Shown here piece by piece: positions 1 through 48,940 of a stretch of 64,000 nt of DNA (its first letter is position 1; each line of letters starts with the position of its first letter). The stretch is from an uncultured virus (IMG/VR IMGVR_UViG_3300028048_003121) (taxonomy: Duplodnaviria > Heunggongvirae > Uroviricota > Caudoviricetes), in IMG/VR virus record IMGVR_UViG_3300028048_003121. One strand, given 5' to 3'. The notes beneath the pieces are model-generated. The model made no database searches. It saw only the letters and a list, made by a program, of their open reading frames with translations, and had not been told where the DNA came from. Position numbers and translations under genes: made by a program.

Positions 1-3000
1 AGGCTTCATCATTTCATCGGCACGCTCCGGCGTAGCGGCTGCCAAGGCAGCACGGTATTGAAGGTCGGTGAACGCATCGGCCTTACCAGTAGCAGAAACC
101 TTCTGAATATCCTCAGAAGCAGCTACTTCTTGCTCCTCTCCAGAGTTATAGTTCATCTGGTTCGTCACACGTGCATCTACGACGGCACAAAGGAAGTCGG
201 CATAGATACCCAAACGTACCAATGCCTCCTGACGGTCTTCCTGATTATAGAAACGCTTACCGGCGATACTATCGAGCGCGTTCAGGAAGTCGCGCTCCTC
301 AGCAAGAACCTGCGTCTGATCCATGTCATCAAGGCGGTTAATGGTCGCATTAACCTGCTCACTCAAATCCTCATAAGGCACAGCGGTCCACTTTTCAATC
401 AGATGACTGACGGCATCCAGAGAAAGGTTGGTATGCCAGTCGATACCATAGTCATTCAAAGTCTTACGGGCCTCAGTAGCCTGAGTTTTCTCCTTACTAT
501 AACGGTCGGAATGGTAATCCTCCTTATTAGCAAGAATATAGAGTTGCTGACGGATGCCGTCAGGCAGAGAGGGCGAGTAGACCTCACCATTCATCTCAGC
601 CAAACGCTTACGGGCAGCGAAGATAACCTCGTTGTCCTGATGAATCATATAACCGTCAGTGTTCTCGGCAGCCTTGGCTTCCAGCCATTGCTTATCGTCA
701 ACACGGGACTTCTGCAAGTCCATCATCTCCTTGATCCATTCCTCTGCCTTCTGACGCTGGGAGAAAGTACCCTCTACATCAGCCGCACTGACCAGATGGT
801 TACCACACCAGGTACCACAATGAACGTAAGCACGTTCACGCCAGCTACCGGTATCGGCAGCCTCGCGCATCTCGGAGAGACTGACAAGACCCAATACCTC
901 ACGGTTGAAGGCGACCTTATGGTCACGGCCTTCCTTGTAAATCCTATAGACAGGCTCCTCCTGCTTGGGAAGAGACTTTACAGTCTCATCAAGGCTGGCC
1001 TGTATCTTCTTGTCAAGCTCCTCCATATCATGCTTCAGGGAAGCAAGCTCCTCCTCCTTGGGCCATGCCTTGCCTGCAATACGCTCGTACTCGCTGATAT
1101 CCTCGGAAATCTTCCTGTTACGCTCCTCATACTGAGCGATATAGGAAGGAATCTTGTCTAATGCCTGCACACCGTAGCGCACAGCTCCAAGACGGTTATC
1201 CTTGCTCATGGCAAGGTGACCATTATTGAACTCATACTGATAATGACCCTGAATATAGAAACGGTTGCCTGCAAAGACATCCTTTTTCTGGGTGTTGTCA
1301 TACATATAGATGCTGTCAACAATGAATGGGAAACCATAGACTTCACCAATCTGTCTGTCCTTGTTGCCGACAGTACGACCGGCATCCTGAAGCTTACTGC
1401 CCATACCCTCAATGTTATACTTTCCGTCAGGGGTGAACTCCGGCTCATTCATCATCACAAGACCTGGCAGGGCGATACCGTCCTCACCACGCTTGATGAC
1501 TGACTGGAACTTCTCATAGTCCTCAGTCATATTCTTGATGATGACCGTATTCTTCTGAACCTTCTCACGGGCATTCTCCAAACGCCACTCGGTATCACGA
1601 CGGGCCTGCATATAGCTCTTACGCTCCGACTCCAGACCCATAATCTTCTTTTCCAGCTTCGCCTTCTGCAGCAAGTCATCATTACCGGAAAGAATAGCCA
1701 CCATCTCGGCGAAGTTCATACCGTTCTCTTCATCAAAGGCACCCTCATCGATGACACGGGTACCAAGGGAGTTGGTCTTCAACTGCGTGATGAAGAGCTG
1801 TTTGTTACGAAGCAGGTTGAACTTATAGACATCCAGACTGCGCTCAACGGCATAGATAAGGACATCGACATTGTTACCGCCGAACTCCTTGGCAACCCAG
1901 TTGCCGGTACGACGGGCACGTCCGTTACGCTGCTCCAAGTCAGACGGACGCCAAGGAATGTCGATATGGTGGACGGCAACGGCACGCTTCTGGGCATTGA
2001 CACCCGTACCAAGGGTGGAGGTGCTGCCGAAGAGAACGCGGATCTTACCGTCGTTCATATCCTCAATCATCTGCTTACGCTGCTTCTCATTCTTCGCCTC
2101 CTGGATGAAACGGATCTCTGCAGCAGGAATACCATAGTCATTGACGAGCTTGTCCTTGATCTCCTGGAAAACATTCCACTCGCCAGGCTTATAGGTGGAA
2201 AGGTCGCTGAAGATAAACTGCGTACCTTTCTGCTCGTCATACTTCTTATAATAGTCGGCAACCATGCGGGCGCAATGGCTGGCCTTATTGTCGGGGTCAT
2301 CACTGAAACGCTCCTTGGAAACAAGGCGCATATCCAACGAGGCCTTACGGCTGGCATCGGTGGCAATGAGCATCTTACCCTTTTCCTCACTATCAGAGAG
2401 AGGAGCACGGAAAATAAGCTCACCGTCGCCAGTCTTGGCGAACTCTATCAGACGCTGGTTGAAATCCTGCTGATCCTTGGTGGGCTTGATGCTATGCAGG
2501 ATGACGTTCATATTGGGACGGTCGAGACCGACATCCTCACCAGTGCGGAAGTCGGTGATTTCATTATAGAACGTAGCAAGCTCAGGAACCTTAACGAAAT
2601 AGCGGAAACGCTCCTTAACGGCTACCTGATTGGTGACGTTGAACTCATAATCCGACGTCTTCTTGGCATAGACGGCAGCCCAGGCATCAAAAGAATGGAT
2701 GCCCTGACGAGCCATAGCCTCCGGACGAAGATACTTGAAGAGCAAGTATAGCTCAGTAAGGCTGTTGCTGATGGTCGTACCACTTAGGAACGTCGCGCCA
2801 AGGTCTTTACCCGTGCGGTTCTGGATGGTACGGATGGCATACAGCAAATTCAAAGCCTTCTGACTGCCAGCAGGACTACCCAAACCAGAGACACGCTGAT
2901 GACGCGTGGTGAACATCAAATTCTTGAACTGGTGGCTTTCATCGACAAAAATATGGTCGATGCCCATCGTTCCGAAATCCACCACGTCATCGGTACGCTG

Positions 3001-6000
3001 ACTCATGGTAAGCTGGATATTCTTCAGCTTAACCTCCAGGTTCTCCTTGCGTTTCTCCAGACCGGAGAGCATACGCTTGGAGATGCTATGTCCCTGCTGA
3101 CGCAAGACGTCCAGAGCTTCCTCGACATCACGAAGCTCGTCATCGAGAATCTGTTCCTGAATCTCCAAGGACTGGGGAATCTTACCAAACTGGTCATGCG
3201 ACATAATGACGCAGGCATAGTCGTTATTCTTGATTCTATTGAAGAACTGCACTCTGTTGGCAGGACTGAAATCCTTCTCAGAGGCATATAATATCTTATC
3301 ATCGGGAAAAGCGGCCTGATAGGTGGCTGCAATCTCTGAGACATTGGCCTTCAAAGCAATAATCATCGGTTTATTGGCCATACCCAGACGGTGCATCTCA
3401 TGGGCAGCCATACACATGATAAGGGTCTTACCAGTGCCTACCTCATGGTCGCAGATGCCACCGCCATTCTGTAAGAGCATCCAGACGCAGTCCTTCTGAG
3501 ACTTGTAGATATCCTTGACATTGAACTTGGGAGCGGCCAGAGCCTTCAAGTCAATGCCGGGGAATGTCTGATGGGTTCCGTCATATTGGGCTTTGACGAA
3601 ACAGTTGAACTTCCGGTTATACATAGTCTGAAGCTCGTCACGTTGCTCCTTGGGGAGATTGGTGAGATAATCCGTAAAACCGTCGCGGATTTCCTGAATC
3701 TTGCTGTTGGCAAACTGAATCTTCTCCATGTCAGGGCCTTTGACATCGTTACCGTCATGGTCATAACCGACGCACTTCTGGATGTCAGGTGTAGTGTCAT
3801 GGAAGGCATGCTGGAGCAATGACATACCGTCAAAGTCCTTATATTCACCATGGACGCAGAACTCCTCACGGATCTTGGGATTCCAACGGTTCTCGGCAGA
3901 GACGGAATACTCATCGATATGCTCCGCATAACTGATAGACATCTTGGTGCCGAAAACCTTAGACATGTAAGCCTCGTAATGCTCGGTGGGAATCCAGCGC
4001 TCACCGAACTGCAGACCAATCTCATCAAAGGGAATCTGCTGGGGAACGGCAGCCTCCAAGGCAGCCTTGGTCTCTTTCAGGGCTGCAAGCTCTTCCTGTG
4101 ACCAGTGCTCAGGATCATCCTCCTGGGCATCAATGGAAGCAGAGACAAACTCCAGCTTCTCATAGATATTACCTGAGAGTGCCTTGGCGGCAATCTCATA
4201 CTGGCCGTCAGGCATGAAATAGAGCTGACCCTTCAGGACGGCAAGCAGCTCATCACGGCCTTCACCCGTGATATCCTCCATGAATCCGAGGTCAACACGA
4301 CCATAACGGTTCAGGGACACGAAAAGAGCCTCTTCCGGCGTGTCCACATGCTCGATGTCGTAGGCGACAAACGAGACGGGACGCTCAAAGATGTCGCTCT
4401 TGACGAACTTCCCGTCAACGACATTCTCCACACACAGCATGTCACGCGCCATCGTGTCATAGAGCAAGACACGCTGGTTCCTACGCTCGTTGAGCGCACC
4501 ATACTTCATGAAGAAACCGTCATAGGCCTCGTTGAGCTTCTGACGCAGGTCGGCATGCTCGACCTTTTCCTCAGCCTCTATATTATATAACTCATTATAG
4601 AGATCGCGAACGGCGATATACTGACGCATGAGCGGATAGTCACGCTGAGAAAGCTCACTATCCTTGAAGGGATTGAAGACGGGCGTACCTGACTTGACCT
4701 GGCTCAGAATACCGAGCTGGTCGCCATCGGCAACGACGACACCGTCACGCCAGTGGGCTTTCATCTCACCGGCAAAGGCACGAGGCTCCAGACTCTCTTC
4801 CTGGGCCTGCTCTTCATCCCACTGTGCGAAAAGGTCAAGCTGGATGGGACCTGAGCCGACATGCTGCTGGCTCTTAGGCTGCTGCTTGACAGGATCTATC
4901 TTTGGCTTTGCCTGCTGGACCTTATATATATTCTTATTATATAGGGCGACATCCAGACGCTTGGCGAAATCCATTTCAAGGGTGTCTTGAAGCTCTTTGG
5001 CAAGCTTCTCGACATCACCGTCGAAAGGATATTCATAGGCCGGCTCACCATACATATTCTTACCGACCTTGACATCATCGGAAAGGATGTGACCCAGCTC
5101 ACCATAGTCATGGTAATTCTCCTTATCTGGAGTGAAAGCCCAGTTACAGGTGATACCGTTATCACCTTTCTCAGATTCACGGAACATCCTATCCAGATGA
5201 GAATCCTTTCCAACATACTTGCTGTCGCGCTTCTGGATAATAATCAGGTCAGAACCTGCCTCGGTGCCAGCCTCGCTGCTGAACATTCCGTCAGGCAGAC
5301 GGACGGCACTGATGATGTGACCGACCTTGGAGAGACGGTCACGGACAAAGCCGTTACGAGGACTGTCAAGAACACCCCTGCTGGTAATGAAAGCAACCAG
5401 GCCACCGTCATGAACGGTGTCAAGGGCTTTCAGGAAGAAATAGTTATGCAGGGTGTTGGCAGCCCACTTCTTATACCCATCATTACTGTTGGTATAATCG
5501 GGGTCGAAGACCTTGACATCCCCGAAGGGTATATTACTGGTAGTCAGGTCAAAAGTCCCCAAGACCTCCTGCGGAATGGTCTCGAAGCCATTGACAATAA
5601 CCTGGTCTTCGGGATGCAGTGCCTTCAGGATCTTGCCGGTTAGCAAGTCCTTCTCGAAGGCAGTGACCGCCATACCCGGCTGGTCAACCTTGAAAGCCTC
5701 GACGAATTTTCCGTTGCCGGAAGAGGGATCCAGAAACCTATTAACGGCAATGCCGCTACCAGACAAAGCCTTGCTGATAGCCTGCACAACAGCATCAGGA
5801 GTATAGAAAGCAGTCGTGACACTACGCTTCAGACTGTCAAAATAAGCCTGATACTCCTTATCGTCCTTACTGAACTCCTGCAAGACCTCATGCAGACGGA
5901 TGGTGTCATTGAGGTAAGGACGATCGCTGGCCTTCCAGACGCTGTCATCCTGAAGGCTGACACCATAGACGGGGTTCAGAATGAACTTCAGACCGCCGAA

Positions 6001-6126
6001 GCCACTATACTTGCGAAGGGCTGACAGCTCCTCGGCAGTGGCCTTGCGGTTGTCACGTTCCAACTGGAGAGCGATACGGATCGCCTCGATATTATCACTG
6101 AGCTTTTGATGCTTGTTATATGCCAT
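1..6126 (-). CDS. Large N6-adenine DNA methylase / SNF2-type helicase fusion (DarB-like), >2040 aa, 3' end beyond window
   Basis: Absent from the ORF track because it has no stop in the window. ATG at 6126 gives [17 protein letters not shown]...[13 protein letters not shown]. Motifs read by eye: [10 protein letters not shown] (SAM binding), SNIPFGD (catalytic), DHEVGTGKT (Walker A), [10 protein letters not shown] (DExH). Frame still open at base 1. Confidence 0.9.
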
Positions 6127-6191
6127 AATCAACTGCTATGCGTTTCTTTTCCCGACAAAGGAAATAGAAATATGGCACACCACCTAAAATC

Positions 6192-6256: not shown

Positions 6257-6329
6257 TTTTCAAGGTCTTAAATCAAGACGATATAAGATTACTGGAGATG
6301 ACCATAAAAATAAAAAATATCGAAAAATA

Positions 6330-6361
6330 TTTGGAGATACCAAAAATTTTTTGTACCTTTG
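6330..6361 (+). promoter_or_regulatory. Bacteroidetes sigma-A type promoter (-33 TTTG / -7 TAnnTTTG)
   Basis: TTTG at 6330-6333, 20-nt spacer, TACCTTTG at 6354-6361. Confidence 0.7.
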
Positions 6362-6505
6362 CAGCATAACAAACGAGTAGACGGGTAAAAAGTCGCAATA
6401 GCGACATAATGGGAGGCTCCTACTCGCTGTTGGTGCTTGGGCATGAGCATGGTAACTGGCTCACCTTTAAGGATAAAGCCCAGCCAACTCCTGAAGAGCA
6501 GGACG

Positions 6506-6546
6506 GAAAGACCACAGAGATCCTTCGGGGTTTCTGTGGTCTTTTT
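6506..6546 (+). terminator. Strong hairpin plus U-tract, just upstream of guide scaffold A
   Basis: AAAGACCACAGAGATCC-TTCG-GGGTTTCTGTGGTCTTTTT. Confidence 0.7.
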
Positions 6547-6552
6547 GCATAC

Positions 6553-6636
6553 GGGCCGGCTGTACGGCCTTAACGTGAGGGCATTGCCCACTCACGAATC
6601 AAGCGTTCATTAACATCGAGGCAAGCTTGATACAGC
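6553..6636 (+). ncRNA. Guide scaffold A (tracr-like RNA fused to a repeat 3' fragment)
   Basis: GGCC-GGCTGTAC-GGCC hairpin; CGTGAG...CTCACG hairpin; anti-repeat ATCAAGCGTTCATT; ends in AAGCTTGATACAGC. Homologous to three other loci in the window. Confidence 0.8.
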
Positions 6637-6830
6637 CGTCCATCATGTCTGAATAGACAGACAACGGGTGTTAGACACCCGAAAATGAAAGCTTGATACA
6701 GCTCAACCGCATGGATGCCGCCATCCTGAACAGGTGTTAGACACCCGAAAATGAAAGCTTGATACAGCTAAAGATGAGGTCTTTGGCACGATATATGGGT
6801 GTTAGACATCCGAAAATGAAAAAAACAGTG
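6623..6830 (+). CRISPR. Mini CRISPR array A: repeat GGTGTTAGACACCCGAAAATGAAAGCTTGATACAGC, 3 spacers
   Basis: Partial repeat 6623-6636; full identical 36-nt repeats 6667-6702 and 6733-6768; degenerate repeat from 6798. Spacers 6637-6666 (30 nt), 6703-6732 (30 nt), 6769-6797 (29 nt). Confidence 0.92.
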
Positions 6831-6921
6831 AAGCGTCGCGGCTCACTAAAATATATAAAGAATAATAATACCATTCTGGTCTACGAGAATCCGCGACATC
6901 TCGCCCAGGGTGGTATTTTAA

Positions 6922-7215
6922 ATGGAAATGATTATGAGAAAGTTATTGATTAGTCTCGTGATGGCGCTGGCAACAATATGTGCACAGGGCCAGGAGAAAA
7001 CAACGGTGACAATAAATGACACCTGTAAAGTTGAAGGTCAGACGTCTTCAAAGACGGTGAAAGTCACCAAGAAACAGAAGATGAAAAAACTGTCAAAGAA
7101 AGAACAGAGACAGCAGCTGATGAAAAGAAACAAGACGGCAAGCTATGTCGAAGCATCAGCAGAAGATAAGCATAAAGACAGCATAGCTGGTGTGACAAAC
7201 CTTAAACTTTATTAG
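6922..7215 (+). CDS. Small secreted basic protein
   Basis: Signal-peptide-like N-terminus MRKLLISLVMALATICAQG; followed by a terminator hairpin. Confidence 0.65.
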   Translation: MEMIMRKLLISLVMALATICAQGQEKTTVTINDTCKVEGQTSSKTVKVTKKQKMKKLSKKEQRQQLMKRNKTASYVEASAEDKHKDSIAGVTNLKLY

Positions 7216-7221
7216 ATAGAC

Positions 7222-7252
7222 AAAAAGAGGATGCCTGCAAGCACCCTCTTTT
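7222..7252. terminator. Bidirectional intrinsic terminator
   Basis: AAAAAGAGGATGC-CTGCAA-GCACCCTCTTTT between convergent genes. Confidence 0.65.
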
Positions 7253-7318
7253 AAAATTTCTGCATTAAAATCTACCACCTGCTATATCGCTTATATGTAG
7301 GTAGCACGGAATCAAACC

Positions 7319-7756
7319 TTACCGCCTCATAAACTCAGCCTCGTCGAAGCTGTCAAAGCGATCGAAACAACCGTCAATACGGAGGTCGTCGGACTTCTTG
7401 ATGATGTCGATACCATACAATTTAGTCTGTTGAGTCAAAGCCTGTCTCATACAGTCATCATCAAGTTCTATCTCCTTATAGATGTTAATATAAGTATTAA
7501 ACAATTGACGCCGAGCACCATTGCGTATAACAGTCTTACCGTTATAGGTGACGCCATTCTCTCCGCGACCATTATTATTATATGTCATGTAGATAGATGC
7601 CACCGTTTCGTAAGTGTTGGTATCATAGATCCAGATCATCGCAGTATTACTAACAGGGTCGTAACGAGCCTCTGACGCGTAATGACACGCCAAAACATTC
7701 AATGGTGTTGCAAACAAGCCGAACATCATCATCATCATAAATACAATCTTCTTCAT
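7319..7756 (-). CDS. Secreted hypothetical protein
   Basis: Signal peptide MKKIVFMMMMMFGLFATPLNVLA; 145 aa. Confidence 0.7.
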   Translation of the reverse strand: MKKIVFMMMMMFGLFATPLNVLACHYASEARYDPVSNTAMIWIYDTNTYETVASIYMTYNNNGRGENGVTYNGKTVIRNGARRQLFNTYINIYKEIELDDDCMRQALTQQTKLYGIDIIKKSDDLRIDGCFDRFDSFDEAEFMRR

Positions 7757-7825
7757 AATACAATCTCTTTAATTAAACCTAACAAAAACTAACACATCCT
7801 ATTTCGCGAAAATAGTTTCATAAAA

Positions 7826-12535: not shown

Positions 12536-12952
12536 TTACATACGGCGGTCATGACCCCAGATAATGCCTCTTCCTCCGTCGGGAAGCTCAATGACATAGG
12601 GGTCACGGACACCTATAATGTCAGTACCGATATGTCGGGGAGAGTCATCATCCGATGACGAACCGCCACCGGAAGACAGCTTGGCAGTAGTGGCATCCAG
12701 ACCAAAGAAACGGGGTAGAGCCGTACTCGCCGTGACAAGGAAGACACACGAGAAAGCAAGACGCATCACCTTCATGCGAACCTCCGGCTCGCCGTCCATC
12801 ATGTCTGAATAGACAGACAACGCGCCGACAATACAGATGACGGCTGCTATCGCATAGCAGACGGCACGGACATAGAAAAGGTAGCTGGCGACGCCTGTAG
12901 CGGCGAGGCCCAGCGGATCAGCGGTTAAAATCAAGTGTGTCATAAGCATCAA
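12536..12952 (-). CDS. DUF4134/TraE-like pilin paralogue (target of spacer A1)
   Basis: CYAIAAVICIVGALSVY...FL..ALPRFFG aligns with the TraE at 25892-26305. Confidence 0.75.
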   Translation of the reverse strand: MMLMTHLILTADPLGLAATGVASYLFYVRAVCYAIAAVICIVGALSVYSDMMDGEPEVRMKVMRLAFSCVFLVTASTALPRFFGLDATTAKLSSGGGSSSDDDSPRHIGTDIIGVRDPYVIELPDGGRGIIWGHDRRM

Positions 12953-30992: not shown

Positions 30993-31015
30993 ACAACCCA
31001 AAAGAAAGAGAGATA

Positions 31016-31312
31016 ATGAACACAAAGCATATCATCGTCCTGATCCACGACGAACAGGCAAAGCCATTCATCCTGCACAGCGACAAACGCTTTCATGAGA
31101 ATATCATCGAACGGCACGGCTGCCATGTCACGGAATACCTGTCTGAGGCAGCAGCCAAGAAGAAAGCGGCACAGTGCTGCAAGCAGTACACCTACGGCAA
31201 GAGCCACGCCATGACATACGGCGACCTGGAGAGACTGGAGGCAAGGCTCCAGGGGTGCTACGCCCACGGGCTACGCACCAGAATGATAGAAGAATTTCTG
31301 GAAGAGCTATAG
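31016..31312 (+). CDS. Hypothetical protein
   Basis: 98 aa; followed by hairpin AATCCCCAAAGGTA...TACCCTTGGGGATT. Confidence 0.65.
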   Translation: MNTKHIIVLIHDEQAKPFILHSDKRFHENIIERHGCHVTEYLSEAAAKKKAAQCCKQYTYGKSHAMTYGDLERLEARLQGCYAHGLRTRMIEEFLEEL

Positions 31313-31503
31313 GATAAATCCCCAAAGGTACGATAAATTACGTTACCCTTGGGGATTTTCCGTGGAAAACCTACTATTTTCCATTGATAACGGAAAAATT
31401 TCCTCAGAACGCACTAAAATAGTGCAAAAACGAAGGGAAATTTCCATTTAGTGGCAGAAAATTTCCGTTTTAACGATTTTCTTGCAAAAAACGACGGAAA
31501 AAT

Positions 31504-31534
31504 TTTGTTATTACAAAGAAAAATCGTAACTTTG
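31504..31534 (+). promoter_or_regulatory. Bacteroidetes sigma-A promoter for guide locus C
   Basis: TTTG at 31504-31507, 19 nt, TAACTTTG at 31527-31534; scaffold starts ~15 nt downstream. Confidence 0.78.
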
Positions 31535-31549
31535 CAGGGTGTCATTATC

Positions 31550-31633
31550 GGGGCAGCTGTTTGCCCTTAACATGAGGGATAAATCCACTCATGAATCATG
31601 CGGTCATTCTCATAATGATAAGCTGAATATAGC
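31550..31633 (+). ncRNA. Guide scaffold C (tracr-like RNA fused to a repeat fragment)
   Basis: GGGCA-GCTGT-TTGCCC; CATGAG...CTCATG; ends AAGCTGAATATAGC. Confidence 0.8.
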
Positions 31634-31750
31634 ATTAGACGCTCCAGCCTTGTACTCCTTGAAGGTGTTAGACACCTGGGAATGAAAGCTGAATACAGCT
31701 TGGGTGATAAATCGTAACTATAGTTTCCTGGTGTTAGACACCTCTAATAA
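31620..31750 (+). CRISPR. Mini CRISPR array C: repeat GGTGTTAGACACCTGGGAATGAAAGCTGAATACAGC, 2 spacers
   Basis: Partial repeat ending 31633; spacer 31634-31663; full repeat 31664-31699; spacer 31700-31729; truncated repeat from 31730. Repeat is closely related to array A. Confidence 0.85.
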
Positions 31751-31773
31751 AACAAGGTAAGATGACTCCTACC

Positions 31774-32094
31774 TTATTTTATTTGTCTATTTTTCTTATC
31801 CTCCCGTCTGGCTTCACGAATCAATCTACGCCATGCAAAGCGACTAAAATGATTATGCCTACGCTTCAACCTCCGTCGAGTAGATGGCTTGTTAAGAATA
31901 CCGTCCCATAACTTGTAATAAGTCAGATGACGGTAACGCCACCCTTTGCCAAACAGGGCAAAGGAGATATTCTCAATGGATGGCGAAATCTCCCTGCACC
32001 AGAGCTGGACGATAGCGGAGAAAATAACAGTCAGTAGTATGGATGCTATAAACACCCATACTACAATGCCGGTCCAGTAGAACATCCTATCCAT
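31774..32094 (-). CDS. Small membrane protein
   Basis: N-terminal TM, basic tail. Confidence 0.6.
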   Translation of the reverse strand: MDRMFYWTGIVVWVFIASILLTVIFSAIVQLWCREISPSIENISFALFGKGWRYRHLTYYKLWDGILNKPSTRRRLKRRHNHFSRFAWRRLIREARREDKKNRQIK

Positions 32095-46795: not shown

Positions 46796-47188
46796 TTATT
46801 CGGCTTCGCTAACTGTCATAAAATTCTGAGAGGCACGGAGAATGGCTAATACCTGTTTGTCCTGCTTGGGGAACAAACCTACCATGGTCTTACCAATCAC
46901 ACGCTGGATCTTGTTAGCCTTACGGGAGAGCTGGTCGGCAATACTGAACTTGGTATTCATCTCGTCAAGATAGAGGCGACGCTCCTCCATCATAAGGCGA
47001 TGTTCCTCAATCTGGAGTTTCTTAAAATCCAGTTTGCAACGCTCCAAATTGACAATAGCATTGATCTGCTTGACTTGAAGCTCACCACGACGGATGTCTA
47101 TGTCCGTCTCAGCCTTCTCGTTCATTCGCTGACTGAACTCTTCTTCAAGAGCGCAGAGGTCGAAAATTTTTTCTTGACTGTCCTTCAT
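46796..47188 (-). CDS. Coiled-coil hypothetical protein
   Basis: 130-aa ORF. Confidence 0.6.
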   Translation of the reverse strand: MKDSQEKIFDLCALEEEFSQRMNEKAETDIDIRRGELQVKQINAIVNLERCKLDFKKLQIEEHRLMMEERRLYLDEMNTKFSIADQLSRKANKIQRVIGKTMVGLFPKQDKQVLAILRASQNFMTVSEAE

Positions 47189-47220
47189 AACTTTATAATT
47201 TATTTATTACTAAAATTTCC

Positions 47221-47327
47221 TTTTATACCCAGATTGGCGCTATCAATAGGGATTTCCCGTTGTATGTAGCTATATGAGCACTTCATGAGTGAATAAATTC
47301 CTCACGATAGGGGTGTACAACCGCCCC
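47221..47327 (-). ncRNA. Guide locus D: minimal scaffold plus 29-nt spacer immediately downstream of dCas12f
   Basis: Minus strand: GGGG-CGGTTGTACA-CCCC; CGTGAG...CTCATG; ...CATACAAC; spacer GGGAAATCCCTATTGATAGCGCCAATCTG (47258-47230); degenerate repeat start GGTATAAAA. Confidence 0.75.
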
Positions 47328-47337
47328 GAAAATATAG

Positions 47338-48624
47338 TTATTTTGTTTTATCTTTTATTTCTGACTCTTTAAGTTCCTTAACCTCAATACCCACAGCATC
47401 AGCCTTATACTTGATTTTCGTCTTTAAGCCGAAATAACTCCAGTTTCTCAGAACCAGACCATCACCCTTCTCATGGTCTTCCTTGGCCTGGTCTTCACGC
47501 TCTTTCTGGTTTACCAGAACAATCTTTCCACACTTGTGTTTGATAGCTAAGTTGATAAGCTCACGGGAATAGGTGTGAAGCTTGGTGTCAACATAGTTAT
47601 TTTCCTTATCATGCCAACGCTCAATTGCCTGACACTTGCGCTTACGTCCATGACCGCCCTTGGCATATTTATTATTAGCCTGACAACGTTGTACCGCAGC
47701 CTGGATCTGAGTACGGCGATAAAGAAACTCTTCCTTCGTACCTATATGGAAGAATTTAACACCGCTGTCATAAACATTCTTGGCTACGACATTCACACAA
47801 AAAACAATCGGGTGGTTGATACCCAGATAAGCGTAAAGCACCTTATTAGAATTAAGAGCCACTTTCTGGACGGGAATATCTACACAGAGGAATAGAAAAA
47901 GCTTCTGCTTCTTTTTTTCAGACTTTTTATCAAATTTCTTCTCAAAGGCAATAGATGAAGAACATACCTTTAATTCACCATCGATACAACGCTGAAGAAT
48001 AGACTCATTATTAGATCTGTCCTGCCCCAGATGACAGCAGAAAGGAATACCGAAAAGATTGAAATAATAACGGTTCACCTTCTTTACCTCGCCAGTATTG
48101 GTGTCGGTATATTCTTCCTCGGCCTTATGAAGATTTGACAAGGCACGAGCAGAGAACGGAATGGGAATATTGTTTTTATAACTCCGTAATGAACTCTCAC
48201 CAACAGCAATATTGCCGGCAGTTTCCTTGTAGGAACTGGCAACAAGCTGATTAAGACAAGTATATATGTCTGAATTAACTTTATTCTTTAAAAAAGAAGA
48301 AATCAGACGATAAGTGACATTCTGTTCACTCAGTCCTTTTTCGTCTTTAAGGATGTCTTTAGAGTCCTTGTAAGCAAGCTTGAAACCATCAGTCTTCTTG
48401 TCCTTATAGACAAAAGGCTTATTATTAATATCAAGACGCTCCAAGACATCATCCTGCAAATACATAAACTCACGGACGTTCTGTTGAACAAAACGGTGAG
48501 ATACAATCAGATTTGCAGCTCTACGAACAGCATCACGCCAGTCATATAATGTCTGCATGTACTGTTTCTTCTGTTCGGTGTCCTGTTCGTGAACACGGAT
48601 TTCTATTTTACGAGTTATAATCAT
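47338..48624 (-). CDS. Cas12f/TnpB-family RNA-guided protein with inactivated RuvC (dCas12f-like)
   Basis: ITRKIEI N-terminus; GGHGRKRK; LHTYSRELINLA; LRNWSYFGLKTKIKYKA..GIEV. RuvC-I reads YAYLGI instead of xDLGI; RuvC-II reads IVLVNQ instead of IxxEDL; no Zn finger or RuvC-III. Flanked by guide loci. Confidence 0.85.
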   Translation of the reverse strand: MIITRKIEIRVHEQDTEQKKQYMQTLYDWRDAVRRAANLIVSHRFVQQNVREFMYLQDDVLERLDINNKPFVYKDKKTDGFKLAYKDSKDILKDEKGLSEQNVTYRLISSFLKNKVNSDIYTCLNQLVASSYKETAGNIAVGESSLRSYKNNIPIPFSARALSNLHKAEEEYTDTNTGEVKKVNRYYFNLFGIPFCCHLGQDRSNNESILQRCIDGELKVCSSSIAFEKKFDKKSEKKKQKLFLFLCVDIPVQKVALNSNKVLYAYLGINHPIVFCVNVVAKNVYDSGVKFFHIGTKEEFLYRRTQIQAAVQRCQANNKYAKGGHGRKRKCQAIERWHDKENNYVDTKLHTYSRELINLAIKHKCGKIVLVNQKEREDQAKEDHEKGDGLVLRNWSYFGLKTKIKYKADAVGIEVKELKESEIKDKTK

Positions 48625-48640
48625 AATACTAAAATTTTTA

Positions 48641-48792
48641 ATTCATTCGGTGTGTTACACCACCTTGTTCAAGTTATGTCAAGTATCATTCGCTGTGTGT
48701 CACCTCATTTCTTCGGTGTTTTACACCGGGTCGATAGTGTCCACGAAAATCTTTATGCTGTGTATCACCTCATTTCTTCGGTGTTTTACACC
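48641..48792 (-). CRISPR. Mini CRISPR array B: repeat GGTGTAAAACACCGAAGAAATGAGGTGAYACACAGC, 2 spacers
   Basis: Full repeats 48757-48792 and 48692-48727 (1 mismatch); truncated repeat 48641-48661; spacers 48728-48756 (29 nt) and 48662-48691 (30 nt). Confidence 0.9.
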
Positions 48793-48814
48793 TGACTTCA
48801 CGAAAGTCCTTGAC

Positions 48815-48880
48815 TTTTAAAAATTGAGAGCGACTTCGTGAGTGGAAATTCCCTCACGTTAAGGGCATCACAGCTGCCCC
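48815..48880 (-). ncRNA. Scaffold B (tracr-like, not fused to a repeat)
   Basis: GGGCA-GCTGTGA-TGCCC; CGTGAG...CTCACG; anti-repeat GTCGCTCTCAATTT is imperfectly complementary to AAATGAGGTGAC of repeat B. Confidence 0.78.
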
Positions 48881-48940
48881 ATTTGATATAATTATTCTAT
48901 CATATTCATAATCATATTATTTAATTGATACATGTATTTA

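Follow-up and report, generated by a model that had tools for sequence, protein, structure and literature searches.

We describe a candidate guide RNA gene, hereafter named locus C, located at positions 31504-31750 of a 64,000-nucleotide (nt) stretch of DNA from an uncultured virus (IMG/VR record IMGVR_UViG_3300028048_003121; Duplodnaviria, Heunggongvirae, Uroviricota, Caudoviricetes). This whole stretch, referred to as the window, is a Bacteroidales conjugative element of the Prevotella type carrying genes for TraG, TraM, DUF4138, three DUF4134 proteins, a tyrosine recombinase, DnaN, RecD2 and methylases. Our preferred reading, to which we give a probability of about 0.6, is that locus C is a detached and independently transcribed guide gene through which the element sends its nuclease-dead Cas12f (dCas12f) to the relaxase genes of rival elements, probably silencing them. 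Transcription would start a few bases after the -7 box of the promoter and end at a hairpin, giving a natural single guide (scaffold plus spacer 1) followed by one unit of the CRISPR RNA (crRNA) type (handle plus spacer 2). The dCas12f protein, probably dimeric like its solved relatives, would load these guides and form R-loops beside 5'-TTG without cutting. Guided by spacer 1, the protein would go to the 5' part of a MobV relaxase gene that belongs to a widespread, integrated mobilizable element. The slot of spacer 2 turns over between relatives, an anti-relaxase spacer occupying it in one of them (metagenome contig L039). The most likely outcome would be transcriptional silencing of the relaxases of rival or hitch-hiking elements, which would limit their use of the element's conjugation machinery, and a sister locus, locus A, would contribute one guide or more aimed at the transfer region of the element itself. 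The 5'-G motif of dCas12f, its dimeric state and the order of its guide, with the scaffold 5' and the guide 3', are taken from the accessible parts of two reports (PMC13472631; bioRxiv 10.1101/2025.06.10.658880).

Between positions 31000 and 32300, the sequence holds the closing hairpin of the upstream gene, an AT-rich stretch, and then the promoter, scaffold, spacer 1, repeat, spacer 2, partial repeat and terminator hairpin of locus C, in this order and all on the plus strand. The promoter motif (31504-31534) is composed of a -33 box, TTTG (31504-31507), a 19-nt spacer and a -7 box, TAACTTTG (31527-31534), and it is called Bacteroidetes-type according to what we take to be the consensus. The pattern TTTG-N17-23-TAnnTTTG occurs five times in the window against 1.1 expected, and none of 100 shuffled sequences reached five. 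The scaffold (31548-31633) opens with two covarying hairpins (31550-31595), continues with an anti-repeat/handle hairpin ending in GCTGAATATAGC, and is directly fused to the 30-nt spacer 1 (31634-31663). It is followed by a single full repeat of 36 nt (31664-31699), with a 5' hairpin (GGTGT-TAG-ACACC) and a 3' handle resembling the 3' end of the scaffold, by the 30-nt spacer 2 (31700-31729), and by a terminal partial repeat of 13 nt (31730-31742) that holds the 5' hairpin only. Matches to the 13-mer GGTGTTAGACACC with at most two mismatches number 12 in the window (0.97 expected), and the same type of repeat is found in locus A and, in an altered form, in locus B and in arrays of viral contigs. 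A canonical array has at least two full repeats; locus C has one full repeat, one partial repeat and one handle fused into the scaffold.

Locus C lies between two convergent genes, 31016-31312 on the plus strand, which closes with a hairpin of its own, and 31774-32094 on the minus strand. A hairpin with a T-run (31755-31785, plus strand), called by eye, is likely an intrinsic terminator common to locus C and to the convergent gene, just before the stop of which it stands. This hairpin (31755-31774) has seven pairs and one mismatch and is followed by TATTTTATTT; a stricter automated terminator scan did not call it. The distance from locus C to the effector gene (47338-48624) is 15.6 kilobases (kb). 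The anatomy is therefore that of the initial annotation of the window, which had placed a near-perfect Bacteroidetes promoter directly before the scaffold, a single full repeat and two 30-nt spacers between convergent operons, 16 kb from the effector, and which gave the letters and places of both spacers correctly.

The scaffold links locus C to a protein family. A covariance model, R1, matched locus C at 31548-31600 (62.1 bits, E 7.5e-14) and found exactly four scaffolds in the window, with scores from 56.6 to 66.4 bits, belonging to loci A, B and C and to an additional copy, D. The structured segment of the scaffold of locus C measures 84 nt (31550-31633). In a set of 17 scaffolds, drawn from the window, a related genome, a Prevotella metagenome-assembled genome (MAG) and metagenome contigs, compensatory changes on both sides were observed at 10 of the 16 pairs of the two hairpins. 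Scaffold cells were paired in 91.2% of cases, compared with 40-60% when the partner column was slid, and none of 500 shuffles matched the score, the structure having been derived partly from the same sequences, which favours it. The third part of the scaffold is predicted to fold as a hairpin, the 3' half of which resembles by eye the 3' half of the repeat. On this prediction, loci A and C open with a natural single guide, in which the anti-repeat is joined to the handle by a short loop, and the repeat-spacer units that follow would presumably need a scaffold provided in trans. No Rfam family was detected at gathering thresholds anywhere in the window, nor at E<=1 for positions 6300-6900.

When R1 was applied to 29 viral contigs carrying relatives of the effector, 47 matches were obtained in 28 of them, every one on the strand of the effector gene. 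Most of these scaffolds are followed by arrays with 36-37-nt repeats of the same type and 28-31-nt spacers. Since the scaffold is homologous to RNAs located beside effector genes on the same strand, we assign locus C to the guide RNAs of the (d)Cas12f family, in agreement with the earlier proposal of an orphan guide locus with its own promoter and a type V order (scaffold or handle 5', spacer 3'). Among the sister loci, locus A (6551-6810, plus strand) consists of a scaffold fused to spacer A1 and two further repeat-spacer units, giving three spacers in total. Locus B (48649-48882, minus strand), directly upstream of the effector gene, combines a scaffold (48830-48882) with a two-spacer array. 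Scaffold D (47277-47329, minus strand) is directly downstream of the effector gene and has no clear repeat-spacer unit.

The effector gene (47338-48624, minus strand) is intact and encodes P0001, a protein of 428 amino acids (aa). Its best solved relative is the "nuclease-deactivated Cas12f" 9n9c, to which it aligns over its full length (E 1.4e-62), as compared with E about 4e-45 for active Cas12f nucleases; Pfam and NCBIfam gave weak matches to TnpB families. Alignments to 9n9c and to the active 9nzo indicated that the RuvC-I Asp is replaced by Tyr and the RuvC-II Glu by Asn, the latter as in 9n9c. P0001 also ends at the same point as 9n9c, without the zinc finger and without RuvC-III. By its sequence, P0001 is a RuvC-dead, C-terminally truncated Cas12f and, the protein being nuclease-dead, the likely outcome is binding, not cutting. 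At E<=0.001, the family of P0001 counts 831 representative clusters, of which 138 remain at E<=1e-30. Relatives on the 29 IMG/VR contigs share 40-48% identity with P0001 over the best-matching segment, and the neighbours of eight of them are temperate-phage genes, encoding portal, terminase, RecT, integrases and S24 repressors. Among the window open reading frames (ORFs) scanned, no Cas1, Cas2 or Cas4 domain (Pfam) and no Sigma70 domain were found, the effector neighbours P0002 and P0273 included, and no sigma factor was found among 52 ORFs scanned around the eight viral-contig relatives. With respect to the features that define dCas12f-sigmaE systems, the window thus has the truncated RuvC-inactive Cas12f and lacks an rpoE gene in the operon.

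We compared three copies of locus C, from the window, from the genome G001 and from L039. The promoter motif, scaffold, spacer 1, repeat and terminator are nearly identical in the three copies, apart from an 11-nt insertion following the promoter and a small number of substitutions. All three share an identical spacer 1, and each has a different 30-mer as spacer 2. At locus A, a relative (metagenome locus L037) has two spacers, both unlike the three of the window, the fused one included. Because spacer 2 is swapped among the copies of locus C and the spacers of L037 are all different, the spacers of loci A and C are best described, at the level of sequence comparison, as exchangeable guide slots and not as fixed sequence. 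Of the matches to locus C in 74 family genomes, G001's own locus C and its MobV site aside, most were to the AT-rich promoter stretch alone, and those in G223 and G238 were 24 nt long, 96% identical, and spanned the 3' part of spacer 1 plus the start of the repeat; none of these was counted as a relative. An 11-mer common to spacer 2 and the promoter region was also dropped, about 0.6 such words being expected by chance according to our estimate.

G001 is the closest genome among those compared, and its element is about 96% identical to that of the window. It cleanly lacks the block 6289-7819, containing locus A, and the block 46798-48936, containing the 130-aa ORF P0273, scaffold D, the effector gene and locus B; the junctions of both blocks showed no target-site duplication. 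In this genome, which is 93% complete, no effector was detected with P0001 or with a 36-sequence profile, and R1 found no scaffold other than that of locus C. G001 nevertheless keeps locus C and also carries the MobV target described below. Locus C could be a relic, decaying from a larger array, or an RNA decoy that soaks up the dCas12f of a rival element in the manner of RNA anti-CRISPRs. Its survival in an element without the effector cassette and locus A would suit such an origin, as would the single full repeat and the absence of adaptation genes from the window ORFs scanned. The almost unchanged promoter, scaffold, spacer 1 and repeat in three copies, together with a cleanly swapped spacer 2, point instead to use and not to decay, and RNA-library contigs hold the locus. 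RNA anti-CRISPRs and solitary repeats carry no targeting spacer, whereas locus C has a complete scaffold and perfect spacer matches with a common flank. We therefore regard a relic or decoy as quite improbable.

Spacer 1 (C1) matched 31 of 31 positions in contig C76 of G001 and in five more genomes of the genus (6 of the 401 searched). All six sites fall in one and the same gene, its copies sharing 97-100% aa identity, and occupy nt 243-273 of its coding region, where the guide runs antisense to the mRNA. The product of this gene is a MobV relaxase (NF041497, 122.9 bits for a cut-off of 100). The element carrying it (C76 in G001; 153000-167956 of contig C2 in G723) has 96-99% DNA identity among six species-level genomes. 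Its copy in G723 immediately adjoins tRNA-Pro(GGG) and neighbours aroA and chromosomal genes, so that the element is an integrated mobilizable one; the 9 kb examined yielded no integrase. Spacer 2 of L039 gave a match of 33 out of 33 in G416 (one of 301 genomes), at nt 326-355 of the gene for a 492-aa MobA/VirD2-type relaxase (PF03432, 28.3 bits for a cut-off of 24.6), again in antisense orientation. Both relaxase sites are preceded by 5'-TTG, which fits the 5'-G target-adjacent motif reported for dCas12f (PMC13472631). A third perfect match (30/30) was found for spacer A1 at 12793-12822 (plus strand), in a DUF4134 gene of the element itself (12536-12952, minus strand), which stands at the end of the transfer operon. 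Here too the guide is antisense to the mRNA. The site lies about 120-160 nt from the start of the gene, and dCas12f may or may not bind it. The three perfect targets are thus located inside coding regions, within the first 360 nt, with the guide antisense.

The initial annotation had proposed host genes, other integrative and conjugative elements (ICEs) or phages as targets. Other elements were indeed found, in the form of the relaxase genes of mobilizable elements; phages and housekeeping host genes were not. Its statement that neither spacer is fully matched in the window also holds, the best matches being 18/30 for C1 and 19/30 for C2, and the refuting condition it had named, spacer positions invariant and untargeted across relatives, is countered by the three different spacers 2 and by the perfect targets of spacer 1. 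The spacer 2 of the window had no target in 401 family and 401 genus genomes, PLSDB plasmids, INPHARED phages and, as an exact 24-mer, IMG/VR, and that of G001 had no match in 301 genus genomes. The array of locus B had no match in 281 genus genomes and at most a 16-nt match in G001. A set of 107 array spacers, compared with all locus and genome DNA used here, matched other arrays only, and no scaffold was found in the seven target-bearing genomes other than G001.

The orientation of the three perfect matches, all complementary to mRNA, is also what would be expected of a Cas-free, trans-acting antisense RNA. Its spacers would pair with the relaxase mRNA, and A1 with the DUF4134 mRNA, blocking translation or triggering decay, with the scaffold as a stabiliser only. 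G001, which has both the locus and the target and no detectable effector, is consistent with this mode of action. However, the fold of the scaffold accompanies dCas12f genes in 28 of the 29 viral contigs, and the same 5'-TTG stands at both relaxase sites, which RNA-RNA pairing does not require. The best match of spacer A2 is in sense orientation, and three antisense sites out of three arise by chance one time in eight. Pairing of the RNA with mRNA, independent of any protein, thus seems to us a distinctly unlikely account of the targets compared with guidance of dCas12f to the relaxase genes.

Traces of the locus were found in rumen RNA libraries. Some part of locus C is present in 14 RNA runs from bovine or sheep gut, many of them with a small share only. 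Contigs from four bovine runs, belonging to three studies, cover the locus from 31543 (X1), 31554 (X3), 31556 (X2) and 31585 (X4), and together they span 31543-31771. The expectation of the initial annotation that the promoter gives a transcript is in line with this coverage, which begins just after the promoter. One X1 contig (31543-31718) has a word depth of 241, compared with 3.1 for the upstream gene and 32.7 downstream. Positions 31232-31542 are uncovered in X1, which we did not count as evidence of silence, and no RNA contig examined in the four runs spans from promoter to scaffold. In one X4 contig, the L039-type spacer 2 stands between two repeats. This coverage fits a transcription start just after the -7 box and is taken as a hint, not as proof.

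Several observations weigh against a silencing of relaxase genes by bound dCas12f. As the guides are antisense at all three perfect targets, the first part of the R-loop that RNA polymerase reaches would be its far end. This orientation is the weak roadblock direction for dCas12a. A target is known for two of the four distinct spacers of locus C, and the window's own C2 is among those without one. The A1 site has no TTG, its flank being TCGC. Spacer A2 (6703-6732) has a best match of 28/30, in sense orientation and preceded by neither G nor TTG. This match covers the last codons, at the 3' end, of a chromosomal gene for an MscS-type mechanosensitive channel in G601, another species of the genus (L105, 754-786). 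RNA libraries can contain DNA, and the contigs described above show neither strand, ends nor level. Finally, G001 indicates that the guide can be kept where its protein is missing. The direction of the sites is the main uncertainty of silencing by bound dCas12f, and it makes guided antisense transcription and protein-free antisense pairing live rivals.

In guided transcription, bound dCas12f would recruit RNA polymerase via a sigma factor or another partner encoded elsewhere. Antisense transcripts running over the start and promoter of the relaxase gene would then silence it by interference, or something downstream would be switched on. The start would be expected about 46 base pairs (bp) downstream from the target-adjacent motif, in the guide's sense. 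In the accessible parts of the reports on dCas12f-sigmaE, the C-terminal domain of sigmaE fills the truncated RuvC, and transcription starts 46 bp from the motif in the guide's sense (PMC13472631; bioRxiv 10.1101/2025.06.10.658880). P0001 has the exact truncation and the RuvC-II Asn of the solved sigmaE-dependent protein, and three perfect antisense targets within the first 360 nt suit antisense initiation better than a roadblock. Set against this are the lack of a Sigma70-domain protein in the window ORFs scanned and in the 52 ORFs around the viral-contig relatives, the length of the spacers (30 nt, versus 14-16 nt reported), and the position of the reported native targets, which lie upstream of genes with the guide in sense orientation and not inside genes, as the three perfect targets do. 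We consider guided transcription unlikely, yet somewhat less so than a protein-free antisense RNA or a relic, and we retain silencing by bound dCas12f as our preferred reading.

A broader scheme can be proposed, tentatively and with more doubt than confidence. Bacteroidales conjugative elements of rumen and gut, together with related temperate phages, would carry a programmable, non-cutting "anti-hitch-hiker" system composed of dCas12f and several detached guide genes, with spacers renewed although no adaptation genes were found in the element. Locus C would be the anti-relaxase cassette of this system, directed against mobilizable elements that use the mating channel. The survival of the guide cassette in sister elements without the effector suggests that co-resident elements may swap guides and effector or share them in trans, and silencing may proceed by guide-directed antisense transcription and not by a roadblock. 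If our preferred reading holds, dCas12f would gain a new role, in the conflict between mobile elements over the conjugation machinery. The locus would also provide a natural hybrid of a single guide and crRNA units, with guide genes located apart from the protein and even maintained without it, and a compact natural module for silencing whose requirement, 5'-TTG or 5'-G, is minimal. The way in which mobilizable parasites are policed by integrative elements in gut and rumen Bacteroidales thereby becomes testable.

Other features were noted around the guide loci. Upstream of the promoter of locus C, three RAAAATTTCC motifs (31393-31466, plus strand) are spaced by 42 and 21 nt and represent half of the six matches with at most one mismatch in the window (1.55 expected); speculatively, they may be operator or regulator sites for guide expression. 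A second Bacteroidetes-type promoter motif (6330-6361) precedes an RNA of about 187 nt that ends just 5' of scaffold A. This RNA (window 6330-6552) has a minimum free energy of -77.6 kcal/mol (z -6.2) and ends in a 20-bp hairpin with a U-run. Its 3' part, hairpin included, is kept in L037, and it has no Rfam match; it could be a leader or attenuator gating read-through into locus A, or a separate small RNA. Locus A also adjoins an open frame of more than 2044 aa with SNF2/helicase domains (1-6132, minus strand), which runs off the window. Large SNF2/helicase open frames are typical cargo of Bacteroidales conjugative elements. In the effector cassette, P0273 is a coiled-coil-like ORF of 130 aa with no family and no relative in the other loci compared. 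An effector relative with 47% identity over the best-matching segment is present in a Prevotella MAG locus (L033, 3359-5670) and in rumen metagenome contigs (L036). These loci have four scaffolds each and repeats of about 13 nt between spacers of uneven length, and are surrounded by ERF recombinase, PAPS-reductase-like and DUF6633 genes, like those of the window. The spacers of L033 had no target in its own genome, G794.

Locus C can be compared with several known systems. Virus-borne mini-CRISPR arrays and solitary repeat units have one or two spacers, are detached from cas genes and are aimed at rival elements. They borrow the active Cas proteins of the host or act as decoys, whereas the element described here brings its own dead effector and a complete scaffold. 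Plasmid-borne type IV-A3 CRISPR-Cas systems are likewise mobile and non-cutting, have no adaptation genes of their own and carry spacers against conjugative and mobilizable elements; in the part of the report available, they are described as acting by silencing in conflicts between plasmids, their spacers being acquired in trans (bioRxiv 10.1101/2023.06.23.546257). Their effector, as described there, is unrelated (a class 1 multi-subunit complex with DinG, as opposed to a single miniature type V protein), and locus C is not a member of this type. The TnpB-like nuclease-dead repressors (TldR) are also small, RuvC-dead, RNA-guided DNA binders that repress, and some are phage-borne. As far as the accessible text describes them (bioRxiv 10.1101/2023.11.30.569447), TldRs are direct descendants of TnpB whose single guide, of the omega-RNA type, is directed at host promoters, in contrast to the Cas12f relatives, repeat-spacer units and changing spacers found here.

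The closest known systems are the dCas12f-sigmaE systems of Bacteroidetes (Hoffmann et al., Nature 2026, PMC13472631; 9n9c), in which a nuclease-dead Cas12f described in 2026 works from the chromosome, together with a private sigma factor, to activate nutrient-uptake genes. Common to both are the truncated, RuvC-dead effector with the same end and RuvC-II Asn, the chimeric single guide with the scaffold 5' and the guide 3', the presence of several guide genes per locus and the encoding of guides away from the effector (category IV of that paper); the G at -1 of both relaxase sites agrees with the 5'-G motif. Here, in contrast, no rpoE or helix-turn-helix (HTH) gene lies beside the effector, the system is carried on a conjugative element with relatives on temperate-phage-like contigs, the spacers are 30 nt long in repeat-spacer units and not fixed guides of 14-16 nt, and the targets are antisense inside the relaxase genes of other elements and not upstream of susCD or two-component operons. 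The same paper, in its accessible part, mentions a "distinct cluster" of CRISPR-array-associated dCas12f without rpoE as possible repressors (PMC13472631). Dead Cas12f, nearby arrays, a structured putative guide upstream and a proposed repressor role are all shared with locus C, the comparison being made by description and not by sequence. For that cluster, the example given comes from a Chitinophagaceae genome and has the promoter of an RND efflux operon as its target, and we found no mention, in that part of the text, of mobile-element carriage, detached guide loci or relaxase targets for it. In the literature searched, to which most subscription journals and the supplements of PMC13472631 did not belong, we found no paper on carriage of dCas12f by conjugative elements, on guide genes detached from the effector or surviving without it, on a hybrid of a single guide with crRNA units, or on relaxase-directed spacers. 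The effector class and the chimeric guide are already known since 2026; the dCas12f relatives described here are located on a conjugative element and on phage-like contigs, with changing spacers, two of which match relaxase genes independently.

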